Below are positions 47,314-49,810 of a DNA stretch of 64,000 nt, piece after piece (positions within the stretch are counted from its first letter, which is position 1; the number at the start of each line of letters is the position of its first letter). A program made the translations under genes and the position numbers. Source of the stretch: Alphaproteobacteria bacterium (GTDB lineage Bacteria > Pseudomonadota > Alphaproteobacteria > UBA8366); contig WHUA01000001.1 of the NCBI GenBank assembly GCA_009377445.1, positions 582,725-646,724 on the forward strand. The letters run 5' to 3'. The notes beneath the pieces were generated by a model. The model was not told the origin of the DNA and made no database searches. It saw only the letters and a program-made list of their open reading frames with translations.

Positions 47314-47415
47314 AGCAACCTGCGTCCTATCGGACGCAGATAAGTTGCTCTAACCTTTTAAGATAGATCAATTTATCTGCAATCAGGTGATTCCACCTGA
47401 TTGCAGATTGATCTA
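47311..47415 (+). mobile_element. MITE-like two-hairpin element (copy 3)
   Basis: TA-GAGCAACCTGCGTCCTATCGGACGCAGATAAGTTGCTCTAACCTTTTAAGATA-GATCAATTTATCTGCAATCAGGTGATTCCACCTGATTGCAGATTGATC-TA. The body is 101 bp and the right arm of hairpin B lacks 4 nt. Confidence 0.9.
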
Positions 47416-47440: not shown

Positions 47441-47761
47441 ATGAACGGACCGAGAAGGGTGCACGACATGGGTGGCTTGGATGCGGACACGGTCGATCGC
47501 GGCGAGCACAAGCACGAGCCGTGGGAGAAGCGGGTGGACGCCATCCGCATGCTCTGCGCCAAGCACGACCTGCTGCGGACGGACGAGATGCGCCGCAACA
47601 TCGAGGACCTCGGCCCGGGCGTGTATGACAAGATGAGCTATTACGAGCGCTGGTGCGCCGCGATCACCAACGTGCTGCTGCAGAAGAACGTCATCACCGT
47701 CGACGAGCTCGGCCGCAAGATGGCCGAGGTCGAACGACGCTGGGCGGAGGCGCGCAAATAG
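47441..47761 (+). CDS. Nitrile hydratase beta-subunit N-terminal-domain homolog, paralog 1 (stand-alone)
   Basis: 106 aa: RVHDMGG...EPWEKRVDAIRML...RTDEMRRNIEDLGPGVYDKMSYYERWCAAITNVLLQKNVITVDEL. It aligns by eye to the N-half of classical NHase beta (IHDTGG...DWEK...DEFRHSIERMGPAHYLEGTYYEHWLHVFENLLVEKGV). Confidence 0.8.
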   Translation: MNGPRRVHDMGGLDADTVDRGEHKHEPWEKRVDAIRMLCAKHDLLRTDEMRRNIEDLGPGVYDKMSYYERWCAAITNVLLQKNVITVDELGRKMAEVERRWAEARK

Positions 47762-47874
47762 CCGCCGGGCGTTGATGACGGGATTCGATGCATGGTATGG
47801 TCCCTCACGATCTGAATTTCGGGCAAAAATGCCCATGTCGATCAGTGAGTTGAGGTATTCGAAGGAATTGGCGG

Positions 47875-48198
47875 ATGACTGCGTCGAGACGCGTGCATGA
47901 CATGGGCGGGCTGGCGGCCGGGCCGGTCGACCGCGACGAGCCCCCACATGCGGCCTGGGAAATGCGGATCGACGCGATCCGGGCGCTGGTCGCCAAGCGC
48001 AAGCTGCTCCGCACCGACGAGATCCGCCGCAACGCCGAGGATCTCGGTCCCGGCGTGTACGACAAGCTGAGCTATCACGAGCGCCGGTGCGCCGCCATCA
48101 CCAACGCGCTGCTGCAGAAGAACGTGTTTACCGTCGATGAGCTTGGCCGCAAGATGGCGGAAGTCGAGCGGCGGTGGAGCAAGGAGCAAAATCGGTGA
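47875..48198 (+). CDS. Nitrile hydratase beta-subunit N-terminal-domain homolog, paralog 2 (stand-alone)
   Basis: 107 aa. It is identical to paralog 1 at 77 of 106 positions by hand alignment. Its stop overlaps the GTG start of the next gene (GTGA at 48195-48198). Confidence 0.8.
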   Translation: MTASRRVHDMGGLAAGPVDRDEPPHAAWEMRIDAIRALVAKRKLLRTDEIRRNAEDLGPGVYDKLSYHERRCAAITNALLQKNVFTVDELGRKMAEVERRWSKEQNR

Positions 48199-48494
48199 CG
48201 GCGCGTTTCAACATTGGCGATATCGTGCGCATCCGCCGCGCGTTCCCGCCCGGCCATGTGCGCACGCCCTATTTCGCGCGCGGCAAGTCGGGCGTGGTGG
48301 ACGCGATCGCGGGCGAGTACCGCAACCCGGAAGAGCTCGCCTACGGGCGCTACGACGGCCCGGCGTTGCCGCTGTACCGCGTCCGCTTCAAGCAGGCCGA
48401 CCTATGGCCCGGCTATGACGGCCCCGCCAAGGACACGGCCATCGTCGACATCTACGAGAATTGGCTCGAACCCGACAAGGAAGGGCAGCAATGA
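48195..48494 (+). CDS. Nitrile hydratase beta-subunit C-terminal (SH3-like) domain homolog (stand-alone)
   Basis: ORF 48174..48494 with the start taken at GTG 48195: ARFNIGDIVRIRRAFPPGHVRTPYFARGKSGVVDAIAG...LYRVRFKQADLWPGYDGPAKDTAIVDIYENWLEP. It parallels the C-half of NHase beta (RFAVGDKVRV...GHTRMPRYTRGKVGTV...VYTVSF...ELWG...VDLWDDYLEP). Confidence 0.8.
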   Translation: MTARFNIGDIVRIRRAFPPGHVRTPYFARGKSGVVDAIAGEYRNPEELAYGRYDGPALPLYRVRFKQADLWPGYDGPAKDTAIVDIYENWLEPDKEGQQ

Positions 48495-49189
48495 CCGGTC
48501 CCGACAAGCATGGCCATGATCATCACGATCACGGGCACGATCATGGGCACGATCATGGGAACAGCCACGATCACGACCACGCCCGGACCTTTCAGCCGGA
48601 TATCGAGGATGCCCCCTTCGGCCAATACCAGGTGATGGCGCAGGCGCTCGGCGAAGTGCTGATCGACAAGGGCGTGATCACGCCGGACGAGATGCGCGAG
48701 CAGCTCGAATGGCTCGACGCGCGGTCCCCGTCCGACGGCGCACGGCTGGTCGCCCGCGCCTGGACCGACCCCAATTTCAAGGCGCTGCTGCTCGAAGACG
48801 TGAACGCGGCGGCCGAATCGGTTGGCGCGACTGCCGGCGACATACCGATCCGCGCGATTGAGAATACGCCGGCCGTGCATAACGTCGTCGTCTGCACCTT
48901 GTGCTCCTGTTATCCGCGCGGGCTGCTCGGCCTGCCGCCGGACTGGTACAAGTCGCGCGAATACCGCAGCCGCACGGTGCGCGAGCCGCGCGCTATTCTC
49001 GCCGAATTCGGCACGGTCATCGCCGACGATGTCGAGGTGCGCGTGCACGACAGCACCGCGGACCTGCGCTATCTCGTCCTGCCGATGCGGCCGGCCGGGA
49101 CCGAGGGGATGGCCGCCGCGGCGCTGGAAGAGCTGGTCACGCGCGACTGCATGATCGGCGTCAGCCTGCCGCGCACGCCGCGTCCGTAG
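48491..49189 (+). CDS. Nitrile hydratase alpha-subunit family protein (SCNase gamma-like) with His/Asp-rich N-terminus
   Basis: ORF 48461..49189 with the start at ATG 48491 (ATGA overlap). The metal-binding claw VVVCTLCSCYP is at 48893-48910 for C-T-L-C-S-C. LPPDWYKSREYRSR, VHDSTADLRYLVLPMRPAGTEG and VTRDCMIGVS are also present. The N-terminus is HGHDHHDHGHDHGHDHGNSHDHDH. Confidence 0.92.
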   Translation: MTGPDKHGHDHHDHGHDHGHDHGNSHDHDHARTFQPDIEDAPFGQYQVMAQALGEVLIDKGVITPDEMREQLEWLDARSPSDGARLVARAWTDPNFKALLLEDVNAAAESVGATAGDIPIRAIENTPAVHNVVVCTLCSCYPRGLLGLPPDWYKSREYRSRTVREPRAILAEFGTVIADDVEVRVHDSTADLRYLVLPMRPAGTEGMAAAALEELVTRDCMIGVSLPRTPRP

Positions 49190-49216: not shown

Positions 49217-49810
49217 ATGTCACCGGGCCGGCTCTGCTCGCTCCTGATCGCGATCGTGCTCGCGGGCTGCTATCTGCCGAGCGATTTCACCGCCGACCTC
49301 CGGATCACGCCGGACGGCAATTACAATTTTCAGTACACCGGGCAGCTCACCTATCTGCCGCTGCGGGAGAAGCTCGCCCAGGGCGGCCTGTCGCAATCGG
49401 AAGTCGCCGAACAGGTGAAAGCGGTCACCGACGATCTCGCGCGCGACAGGGGGTTCGAGGAAATCAGCTATGTCGACAGCGCAACGTTCCGCGTTCGCTA
49501 CAAGCGCGTCGGCAACATCCTGAGCGAGAAGAGCTACACCTTCATCCGCATCAATTCCCGGCTCCTGTCGATGGAGCGGCGCGCGGACGGCACGGTCGAC
49601 ATCTACGGCGACAAGCCGAATACGGCGGACGCCCAGCGGCTCGCGACGTCCGGTCTCGTCATGCGCGGCCAGCTTCGCATTCAGACCGAAGCGAAGGTAT
49701 TACAACAGAACGCGACGGAAATGGTGGAAGGCGCCGCGCCCGTCTATGTCTGGCGGATCGACGGCGTCGAGAAGCCGTCGCCGCGGCTCATCCTTTCCAC
49801 GCGCCCTTAG
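49217..49810 (+). CDS. Hypothetical lipoprotein
   Basis: ORF 49205..49810 with ATG at 49217. The lipobox is LLIAIVLAGC. No family is recognised. It lies immediately downstream of the NHase-like genes. Confidence 0.6.
   Translation: MSPGRLCSLLIAIVLAGCYLPSDFTADLRITPDGNYNFQYTGQLTYLPLREKLAQGGLSQSEVAEQVKAVTDDLARDRGFEEISYVDSATFRVRYKRVGNILSEKSYTFIRINSRLLSMERRADGTVDIYGDKPNTADAQRLATSGLVMRGQLRIQTEAKVLQQNATEMVEGAAPVYVWRIDGVEKPSPRLILSTRP

Follow-up and report, generated by a model that had tools for sequence, protein, structure and literature searches.

A chromosomal split-beta nitrile hydratase locus with a second, altered beta-N gene in an alphaproteobacterium

Gene content and family assignment

Direct reading of the sequence places four same-strand ORFs at 47441-49189 of the window, the whole 64-kb stretch of alphaproteobacterial DNA that was analysed (Table 1). 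The ORF coordinates, the stop/start overlaps, and the VCTLCSC motif in alpha reported by a first-pass annotation of this DNA were all reproduced. A gap of 113 bp separates beta-N1 from beta-N2, and the remaining genes overlap. The start of beta-C is a GTG that shares the sequence GTGA (48195-48198) with the stop of beta-N2 and follows a Shine-Dalgarno sequence, AAGGAG, at 48181-48186; the ATG of alpha likewise shares ATGA (48491-48494) with the stop of beta-C, with AAGGAAGG ahead of it at 48477-48484. On four further metagenome contigs with an identical beta-N2, gene callers predicted the same four ORFs.

Table 1. Features of the nitrile hydratase (NHase) locus, in window positions
Feature	Position	Strand	Description
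beta-N1	47441-47761	+	106 aa; canonical N-terminal half of the NHase beta subunit; Pfam NHase_beta_N
Promoter-like block in the beta-N1/beta-N2 spacer	47772-47801	+	from a five-lineage spacer alignment
beta-N2 (beta-N')	47875-48198	+	107 aa; divergent paralog of the N-terminal beta half; Pfam NHase_beta_N
beta-C	48195-48494	+	99 aa; SH3-like C-terminal beta half; Pfam NHase_beta_C
alpha	48491-49189	+	232 aa; catalytic metal-binding subunit by homology; Pfam NHase_alpha
His/Asp-rich N-terminal tail of alpha, HGHDHHDHGHDHGHDHGNSHDHDH	48509-48580	+	direct reading
Cys-claw motif VCTLCSC, followed by YP	48890-48910	+	alpha residues 134-140 (VCTLCSCYP, 134-142)

The Pfam family matches of all four proteins are far beyond chance. 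Both N-terminal pieces match NHase_beta_N (beta-N1, 68 bits, E = 9e-19; beta-N2, 52 bits, E = 8e-14), beta-C matches NHase_beta_C (78 bits), and alpha matches NHase_alpha (PF02979; 259 bits, E = 2e-77). Alpha also passes the cut-off of the NCBIfam model for NHase alpha subunits (TIGR01323; 253.8 bits vs 249.85), and a protein 100% identical to beta-N2 carries the NCBI name "nitrile hydratase subunit beta." On these matches, the first-pass assignment of the cluster to the nitrile hydratase family of metalloenzymes holds. The closest solved structure for alpha is the Co-type NHase alpha of Pseudomonas putida (3qxe_A, E = 2e-58), and beta-C aligns with residues 129-226 of solved beta subunits.

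Residues around the metal claw are strongly conserved. The motif VCTLCSCYP is invariant in 98/98 aligned alphas, and the PPGHVRTPY motif of beta-C is at least 90% conserved among 78 homologs. In the alignment, H21 of this motif corresponds to P. putida beta H147, and R23, within GHVR, to R149. Both beta-N copies carry R51 and Y67, which an ungapped PDB alignment with an offset of +1 pairs with P. putida beta R52 and Y68. Purifying selection acts on all four genes (dN/dS between the window and the ortholog at locus L001: beta-N1, 0.16; beta-N2, 0.21; beta-C, 0.17; alpha, 0.14). The Thr variant of the claw is taken in the literature as the cobalt type (PMC12646544; PMC7329996). From the presence of this variant in alpha we infer, as the first-pass annotation had, a cobalt-type nitrile hydratase.

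The split beta subunit and its relatives

Separate beta-N and beta-C ORFs were found at approximately 90 related loci from many phyla. Essentially every one of the 80 genome loci with sufficient flanking sequence has them, as do annotated plasmids from Streptomyces, Planktothrix, Burkholderia, Microvirga, Rhizobium, and Azospirillum. Because these relatives share the split, it is not a frameshift artefact, in line with the first-pass annotation, which had judged one unlikely; the dN/dS values and the recurrence of the same ORFs on other contigs likewise rule out a frameshift or assembly error. The split-beta NHases without an activator make up one large clade, coherent in its phylogeny and with members in Alpha- and Betaproteobacteria, Actinomycetota, Cyanobacteriota, Planctomycetota, and other groups; research has so far covered only a few of them, chiefly for their ability to break down pesticides.

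An alpha phylogeny, the check that the first-pass annotation had suggested, was built by neighbour joining only, with the Streptomyces canus (ScNHase) and ToyJ sequences themselves left out. It places the window alpha outside the fused-beta Co-NHases; 96/100 bootstraps set apart the classical alphas that come with a fused beta and accessory genes, and the close relatives of the window alpha have split rather than fused beta genes. Both outcomes are the opposite of what the first-pass annotation had named as refuting its reading. In this tree without the actual ScNHase sequence, the window alpha falls together with that of a Streptomyces plasmid cluster whose genes stand in the same order. The novelty of the architecture had been overstated: the published S. 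canus NHase AnhD/AnhE/AnhA (PMC7329996) has the same order, beta-N, beta-C, alpha, and likewise no activator, and RefSeq annotation already exists for such split-beta clusters. The locus is a known, widespread layout, and its only unusual point is the second, altered beta-N copy.

ScNHase from S. canus CGMCC 13662 (Guo 2019; Guo 2020, PMC7329996) shares with the window locus the split beta, the gene order, the cobalt-type claw, and the lack of an activator gene, a likeness drawn from its published layout and a Streptomyces plasmid cluster rather than from its sequence. It differs in having one beta-N; the window locus adds a second that carries Tyr69His and Trp72Arg (P. putida numbering). The window locus, in contrast to that of ScNHase, lies within a housekeeping synteny block of an alphaproteobacterium and lacks an adjoining HoxN transporter or aquaporin. 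The plasmid NHase of the Microvirga flocculans type (Zhao 2020, cited in PMC11573777) also combines a split beta and a cobalt claw with no accessory gene. It falls within the same broad alpha clade, but its gene order is permuted (beta-C, alpha, beta-N), and clusters of this type, unlike the window locus, are plasmid-borne with an adjoining HoxN or CbtAB and often an aquaporin.

Other comparisons involve fused enzymes. The classical Co-NHase of P. putida NRRL-18668 (PDB 3qxe, activator P14K) shares the claw and beta Arg52, Glu56, Tyr68, His147, and Arg149, and its alpha, the best solved match to the window alpha, has a His-rich N-terminus as well. However, its beta is one fused chain of 219 aa, an accessory protein is needed, and its alpha is approximately 51% identical to the window alpha and belongs to a separate clade. 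In the eukaryotic beta-alpha fusion NHases (Monosiga brevicollis and others), no activator is known and a His-rich stretch lies directly before the alpha domain (PMC3323583; PMC7193024), although these proteins are fully fused, not split.

Genomic neighbourhood and the missing activator

The locus is flanked by polA, GST, lipoprotein, VTT protein, pckA, and SCO1 genes, and this housekeeping synteny block is kept across several alphaproteobacterial lineages; the locus is a chromosomal, vertically inherited member of the clade. HMM scans took in three flanking genes besides the four proteins of the cluster. The product of the downstream gene (49217-49810) contains a lipobox, LAGC, and matched no Pfam family, and the gene after it encodes a VTT/DedA-type membrane protein, in agreement with the lipoprotein and YqaA membrane protein named as neighbours in the first-pass annotation.

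Searches by tblastn with annotated examples across the whole 64-kb window found no accessory or activator gene (five accessory proteins and the SCNase-type activator gave no match), amidase, HoxN, CbtA/B, ECF transporter, or aquaporin; an aldoxime dehydratase was not found in the window either. Earlier statements that a classical activator, an amidase, and an aldoxime dehydratase are missing nearby are thus upheld at the scale of the window, and with no cobalt transporter, amidase, or aldoxime dehydratase there, the pathway context is empty. Against the accessory-protein model TIGR03889, beta-N1 scored 15.1 bits (cut-off, 46) and beta-N2 had no match. Elsewhere in the clade, plasmid-borne members adjoin HoxN or CbtAB cobalt transporters, and CbtAB lies within 3.5 kb in some syntenic relatives, which speaks for cobalt as the metal. 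No partner gene is conserved across the clade, in which the top neighbour family occurs at 10 or fewer of the 80 loci and amidase at 8/80.

Several candidate elements around the cluster were considered and rejected. A functional link to the upstream GST was discounted, as this gene is kept only within the syntenic lineage; the GST adjoining a related Planktothrix cluster is only 24% identical to it. The His-rich tail of alpha was rejected as a built-in activator substitute and is not diagnostic of activator independence, because accessory-dependent classical alphas carry similar tails (Halalkalicoccus, Citrobacter, Paraburkholderia, and P. putida). Such tails occur in 65/90 split-clade alphas and are absent from one split-beta Burkholderiales subclade, and the (His)17 linker of the Monosiga enzyme was reported to be dispensable for metal insertion (PMC7193024). 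A 15-nt perfect palindrome upstream of beta-N1, considered as an operator or riboswitch, is a REP-like repeat that occurs four times in the window. The orthologous spacers at loci L001 and L095 lack it, and an Rfam scan of the region returned nothing above threshold.

The tandem beta-N pair and its proposed roles

The first-pass annotation had recognised two N-domain paralogs. Both are real and have their own stops, although differences between the copies in the substrate pocket had been overlooked. beta-N1 follows the clade consensus in every conserved column. Among these residues are H23, R51, E55, Y67, Y68, and W71, the last five of which correspond to P. putida beta R52, E56, Y68, Y69, and W72. 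beta-N2 departs from this consensus by H23P, K30M, I54A, Y68H, and W71R. Two of these changes fall at pocket positions (Tyr69 to His and Trp72 to Arg in P. putida beta numbering), and, in a homology model of an Ensifer NHase, beta Trp72 is part of the substrate pocket (PMC12646544). beta-N2 retains HDMGG, R51/R52, E55, and Y67, and with them the claw-supporting Arg52, Glu56, and Tyr68 of P. putida numbering. In the alignment, accessory proteins lack HDMGG and the Arg52/Glu56 motif and keep YYxxW, whereas beta-N2 has the opposite pattern. An accessory-like identity for beta-N2 was rejected on this residue pattern, by which the protein is beta-like.

The P23/H68/R71 triad of beta-N2 is kept in 12-13 database clusters (79-100% identity) and in the L001 ortholog. 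Its reading frame is intact across these variants, and the four-gene order is kept on every contig with this beta-N2 type. In a neighbour-joining tree, the beta-N duplication is recent and confined to one lineage, with beta-N2 on the longer branch. We infer a lineage-restricted tandem duplication that gave rise to two beta-N proteins, and both genes, judged from their sequences, appear to be functional. Translational coupling to beta-C and alpha involves beta-N2, not beta-N1. The spacer between the copies contains a block composed of TTGATG, 18 nt, and (TGn)TATGGT; the five-lineage alignment has TTG(A/C)TG, the 18-nt spacing, and an invariant TATGGT, and the remaining spacer is variable. Its promoter function is a prediction from this conservation, because the block scores below the threshold of the consensus scan. 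beta-N1 and beta-N2 probably have separate promoters.

These results are, in our assessment, likely best explained by a chromosomal operon for a cobalt-type, three-subunit, split-beta, activator-independent NHase in which the beta-N pair would serve as alternative subunits. By homology, alpha is predicted to bind Co(III) through the VCTLCSC claw, with two of the claw cysteines oxidised to sulfinate and sulfenate. beta-N would supply a claw-supporting Arg (R51, beta Arg52), a Tyr (Y67, beta Tyr68), and part of the substrate pocket, and beta-C would supply the second claw-supporting Arg (R23, beta Arg149). The assembled enzyme would then hydrate nitriles to amides, again by homology. By analogy with S. 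canus, maturation may proceed without a separate activator. The S. canus beta-N, AnhD, is both a subunit and a self-subunit-swapping maturation chaperone; an AnhD2A swapping complex was described, and the genome has no activator gene (PMC7329996). Such a double role of beta-N would explain the missing activator here as well: a free beta-N piece could form a (beta-N)2/alpha complex, take up cobalt, and swap the loaded alpha into apo-enzyme. The canonical beta-N1 and the beta-N2 with His at Tyr69 and Arg at Trp72 would build alternative pockets. Hence, the two copies are most likely alternative subunits of two isoenzymes with different substrate pockets, a reading based on three substitutions that were mapped by alignment onto the pockets of other enzymes. 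A residue other than Trp at the W71 position also occurs in the single-copy relatives L029, L035, and L046, so the change in beta-N2 may be ordinary pocket drift.

Other functions for the enzyme as a whole fit the evidence poorly. The likeness to thiocyanate hydrolase (SCNase; ScnB/ScnA/ScnC of Thiobacillus thioparus, PDB 2dd4) proposed by the first-pass annotation stands for the architecture, with three subunits in the order beta-N, beta-C, alpha, homologous chains, and a Co claw; furthermore, the top PDB match of beta-N1 is SCNase beta (38.9 bits), and SCNase gamma aligns well with alpha (183.5 bits). It fails for alpha itself, which passes the NHase-alpha equivalog and scores only 207.1 bits against the SCNase-gamma equivalog (TIGR03887; cut-off, 291.45). 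SCNase beta (157 aa) and alpha (126 aa) have N-terminal extensions of approximately 35-45 aa that are missing from the shorter pieces here, whose alignments to 2dd4_B and 2dd4_A begin at residues 45 and 35, respectively. SCNase also differs in its chemistry and in its gene context: the window gave no match to an SCNase-type activator, and the roughly 90 related loci have no conserved sulfur or cyanate context. Conversion of SCN- to COS and ammonia is thus a very improbable function. A tailoring enzyme acting on a nucleoside or other secondary-metabolite nitrile seems equally far-fetched. ToyJKL of Streptomyces rimosus is, by description, a three-subunit NHase with an alpha that matures itself without an activator, and a Planktothrix relative adjoins biosynthetic-looking asnB, TauD, methyltransferase, and aminotransferase genes. 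However, ToyJKL sits in the toyA-M deazapurine cluster, whereas the genes flanking the window locus are housekeeping genes in synteny across several lineages, with no toy-like or other biosynthetic genes adjoining.

The roles of the two beta-N copies leave more room for other readings. One copy could be structural and catalytic and the other a dedicated self-subunit-swapping chaperone, a young "activator" derived from beta-N. The accessory proteins of classical Co-NHases are homologous to the beta-N domain (by alignment, and by the weak TIGR03889 match of beta-N1), and since AnhD alone does both jobs in S. canus, a duplication could split the two roles; beta-N1 also stands apart from the coupled beta-N2/beta-C/alpha unit, apparently with a separate promoter. 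Nonetheless, neither copy has lost HDMGG and Arg52/Glu56 as accessory proteins have, both score as beta rather than against TIGR03889, and the substitutions in beta-N2 affect the pocket and spare the interface and the claw-supporting residues. We therefore consider this division of labour unlikely, if less so than the view of the second beta-N as a duplicate that is redundant or in decay and has no function of its own. The recent, single-lineage origin of the pair and the longer branch and lower Pfam score of beta-N2 are compatible with decay, but its dN/dS of 0.21, the triad and intact frame preserved among variants, and its hold on the coupled position make decay improbable. Alternative subunits of two isoenzymes remain our preferred reading. 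More speculatively, the pair might be a living intermediate in the origin of NHase activators, with roles dividing, or the pocket built by the Tyr69His/Trp72Arg copy might carry positive charge and suit an anionic or strongly polar nitrile, a substrate preferred by none of the characterised NHases; we regard either idea as unlikely.

The locus opens no new kind of system; it adds to the clade a chromosomal, vertically inherited split-beta member with two alternative beta-N pieces. If the pockets do differ, it would represent a natural and simple way to retune substrate range by swapping a 100-residue subunit, which, if true, would have some bearing on the engineering of biocatalysts and on the question of how beta gave rise to activators.

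Split beta subunit in the window and related loci

Direct reading of the sequence recovered the four nitrile hydratase (NHase) genes on one strand at the positions given in the first-pass annotation (see table), together with both stop/start overlaps and the VCTLCSC motif of alpha (residues 134-140). Beta is encoded in halves, as two N-terminal pieces (beta-N1 and beta-N2) and one C-terminal piece (beta-C). The GTG start of beta-C lies within GTGA (48195-48198), downstream of AAGGAG (48181-48186), and the ATG start of alpha lies within ATGA (48491-48494), downstream of AAGGAAGG (48477-48484). Because of these overlaps and the motifs preceding them, beta-N2, beta-C and alpha are translationally coupled, while a 113-bp spacer sets beta-N1 apart.

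Features of the NHase cluster and its surroundings in the window
Feature	Position	Strand	Size	Details
beta-N1	47441-47761	+	106 aa	Pfam NHase_beta_N, 68 bits
beta-N2	47875-48198	+	107 aa	Pfam NHase_beta_N, 52 bits
beta-C	48195-48494	+	99 aa	Pfam NHase_beta_C, 78 bits
alpha	48491-49189	+	232 aa	Pfam NHase_alpha, 259 bits, E 2e-77
Promoter-like block, beta-N1/beta-N2 spacer	47772-47801			TTG(A/C)TG, 18 nt, (TGn)TATGGT
His/Asp-rich N-terminal tail of alpha	48509-48580	+		
REP-like intergenic palindrome copies	47375-47408; 22594-22627; 54619-54652; 59143-59176			A(T/C)CTGCAATCAGGTG, 4 nt, then reverse complement
Predicted lipoprotein	49217-49810		197 aa	lipobox LAGC; no Pfam or NCBIfam match

In a scan against one genome per species, alpha had 80 matching loci (51-86% identity), spread over Alphaproteobacteria, Burkholderiales, Gemmataceae, Binatia, Latescibacterota and other groups. 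When their stop-to-stop ORFs were searched with the four window proteins, separate beta-N and beta-C ORFs were found in essentially all loci with enough flank, most commonly in the order beta-N, beta-C, alpha, and a fused beta in none of the 80. The split arrangement also occurs on annotated plasmids of Streptomyces, Planktothrix, Burkholderia, Microvirga, Rhizobium and Azospirillum, where the NCBI pipeline names the beta pieces beside nthA "SH3-like domain-containing protein" or "nitrile hydratase". Against the closest genome relative, L001 (alpha core ~86% identical), dN/dS (NG86) was 0.16 for beta-N1, 0.21 for beta-N2, 0.17 for beta-C and 0.14 for alpha; purifying selection acts on all four genes. 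Separate ORFs in relatives and this selection exclude a frameshift artefact, which the first reading had considered unlikely.

Other architectures were also observed. At L034 (661-2229) and L076 (2005-2991), a normal beta-N/beta-C/alpha set is directly followed by a further paralog that joins a beta-N to an alpha domain via a His/Asp-rich linker and lacks its own beta-C; this partial fusion recalls the eukaryotic beta-alpha fusion enzymes. A Roseomonas marmotae plasmid (p1318-8; L088, 2020-3669) carries a cluster annotated as scnC (thiocyanate hydrolase [SCNase] gamma) beside CbtAB and a TauE/SafE exporter; in this SCNase-like enzyme, beta is fused and not split, a single 283-aa "SH3-like" protein holding both the beta-N and the beta-C domain.

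Enzyme family, metal and maturation

In a neighbor-joining tree of the alpha core with tips labeled by beta architecture, classical enzymes (Citrobacter, Ensifer, Parageobacillus, Halalkalicoccus, Paraburkholderia, Thioclava and Pseudomonas putida 3qxe; fused beta plus accessory gene, alphas 50-53% identical to that of the window) parted from all split-beta loci in 96/100 bootstraps. The tree hence places the window alpha outside ordinary cobalt NHases, and neither that nesting nor the fused beta in relatives, which the first-pass annotation had named as grounds against its reading, was found. Alpha scored above the cut-off of the NCBI NHase-alpha equivalog (253.8 versus 249.85 bits) and below that of the SCNase-gamma equivalog (207.1 versus 291.45), so that the proposed likeness to SCNase holds for the three-subunit split beta but not for alpha.

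The best solved relative of alpha is the cobalt-type 3qxe (E 2e-58). Since the beta-N alignment to its beta chain (3qxe_B) is ungapped, window residue n corresponds to P. putida residue n+1. In P. putida numbering, Arg52, Glu56 and Tyr68 are kept in both beta-N1 and beta-N2, and the GH(V/T)R motif of beta-C, holding His147 and Arg149, is retained. VCTLCSCYP occurs in 98/98 aligned alphas, and the Thr variant of this claw is taken as the cobalt type (PMC12646544; PMC7329996). Cobalt is further supported for the clade by the HoxN or CbtAB transporters adjoining plasmid-borne members. On four plasmids (L081, L082, L084 and L086), an aquaporin gene and such a transporter repeatedly lie 3' of the split-beta NHase, followed in the Rhizobium ruizarguesonis cluster by a cytochrome P460 gene; the association with an aquaporin could point to substrates or products that are small and neutral.

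Queries taken from annotated loci (five accessory proteins and three amidases) gave no tblastn match in the whole 64-kb window, bearing out the noted absence of activator and amidase, and neither did CbtA/B, HoxN, an ECF permease or two aquaporins. The missing activator is accounted for by the published biology of the Streptomyces canus CGMCC 13662 NHase (PMC11573777; PMC7329996), whose order, anhD (beta N-part), anhE (beta C-part), anhA (alpha), the window matches with an extra beta-N. That genome has no activator gene, and alpha takes up cobalt under reducing conditions (PMC7329996). A Microvirga flocculans plasmid variant has the order beta-C, alpha, beta-N (PMC11573777), and toyocamycin nitrile hydratase ToyJKL is another three-subunit example (PMC7329996). 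The split-beta, activator-free architecture is therefore already published and not new.

The His/Asp-rich tail of alpha (at least four His in 65/90 split-clade alphas) was rejected as an activator substitute, as classical alphas accompanied by accessory genes have it too and a split Burkholderiales subclade does not; the equivalent Monosiga linker is reported dispensable (PMC7193024). The palindrome upstream of beta-N1, in a ~100-nt AT-rich stretch with a strong fold (z = -7.5), was likewise rejected as an operator or riboswitch: it is a REP-like repeat (four copies in the window versus ~1 match expected by chance), not present in orthologous spacers of L001 and L095. Rfam found no riboswitch. 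Judging from sequence, the window cluster is predicted to be a cobalt-type, three-subunit, activator-independent NHase, in metal, activity and maturation route alike.

Duplication of the N-terminal beta piece

Outside the window, two beta-N genes were found at only three of the 80 loci (L001, L018 and L020). The window and L001 pairs derive from one lineage-specific duplication in the neighbor-joining tree, with the longer branch leading to beta-N2. Beta-N1 conforms to the consensus derived from 81 beta-N sequences, whereas beta-N2 deviates at five conserved columns (H23P, K30M, I54A, Y68H and W71R; His23, Tyr68 and Trp71 are 86%, 89% and 91% conserved). Y68H and W71R correspond to Tyr69His and Trp72Arg in P. 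putida, and Trp72 lies in the hydrophobic substrate pocket of an Ensifer NHase homology model (PMC12646544). A database search with beta-N2 recovered 12-13 clusters (79-100% identity), all with the P23/H68/R71 triad and with the same four-gene order on every contig carrying the variant; a further 107 clusters were of the canonical type. Classical accessory proteins are visibly homologous to beta-N in our alignment, and beta-N2 may alternatively be a nascent activator. However, HDMGG and the Arg52/Glu56 motif are gone from accessory proteins, which have kept YYxxW, while beta-N2 shows the reverse; given this opposite pattern, we take beta-N2 to be a functional beta piece whose pocket has changed. 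As the promoter-like block is conserved in five lineages while the remaining spacer varies, the alignment suggests that beta-N2, beta-C and alpha have their own candidate promoter.

An independent, older beta-N duplication was observed at L018 (5021-5685) and L020 (4982-5646). There, the divergent copy is upstream, carries Gly in place of Trp72 and Arg or Gln in place of His24, and resembles the sole beta-N of a Bradyrhizobiaceae MAG (L035).

Genomic context of the cassette

With neighboring ORFs of the 80 loci clustered into families, no conserved partner gene emerged (best family in ≤10 loci; amidase in 8). The window's synteny block (polA, GST, NHase genes, lipoprotein, VTT, pckA, PNPOx/DUF2470 protein, SCO1 and response regulator) is common to L001, partial in L016, L036, L005 and L013, and present on every metagenome contig recovered through beta-N2. 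The cassette is chromosomal and has been inherited vertically within this alphaproteobacterial lineage, and its housekeeping surroundings give no pointer to substrate. A GST-NHase functional link was rejected, the adjacency being lineage synteny only. Downstream of the cluster lie the two neighbors named earlier, a lipobox protein that matches no family and a membrane protein of the VTT/DedA type. The lipoprotein gene begins 27 bp past the alpha stop; its adjacency is probably synteny rather than partnership, because homologs directly 3' of alpha are restricted within the clade to L001, L036, L095, L096 and L100. On Planktothrix agardhii plasmid p1 (L085/L099, 124000-133000), a split-beta NHase lies in an apparent biosynthetic neighborhood (aminotransferase, SAM methyltransferase, TauD/TfdA dioxygenase, NADAR, GST and asparagine synthase) and may be a tailoring nitrile hydratase.

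The window NHase belongs to a known, widespread kind, and public annotation, as found via the beta-N2 search, already labels such proteins as NHase subunits; what this locus adds is modest, a duplicated beta-N predicted to have an altered pocket.
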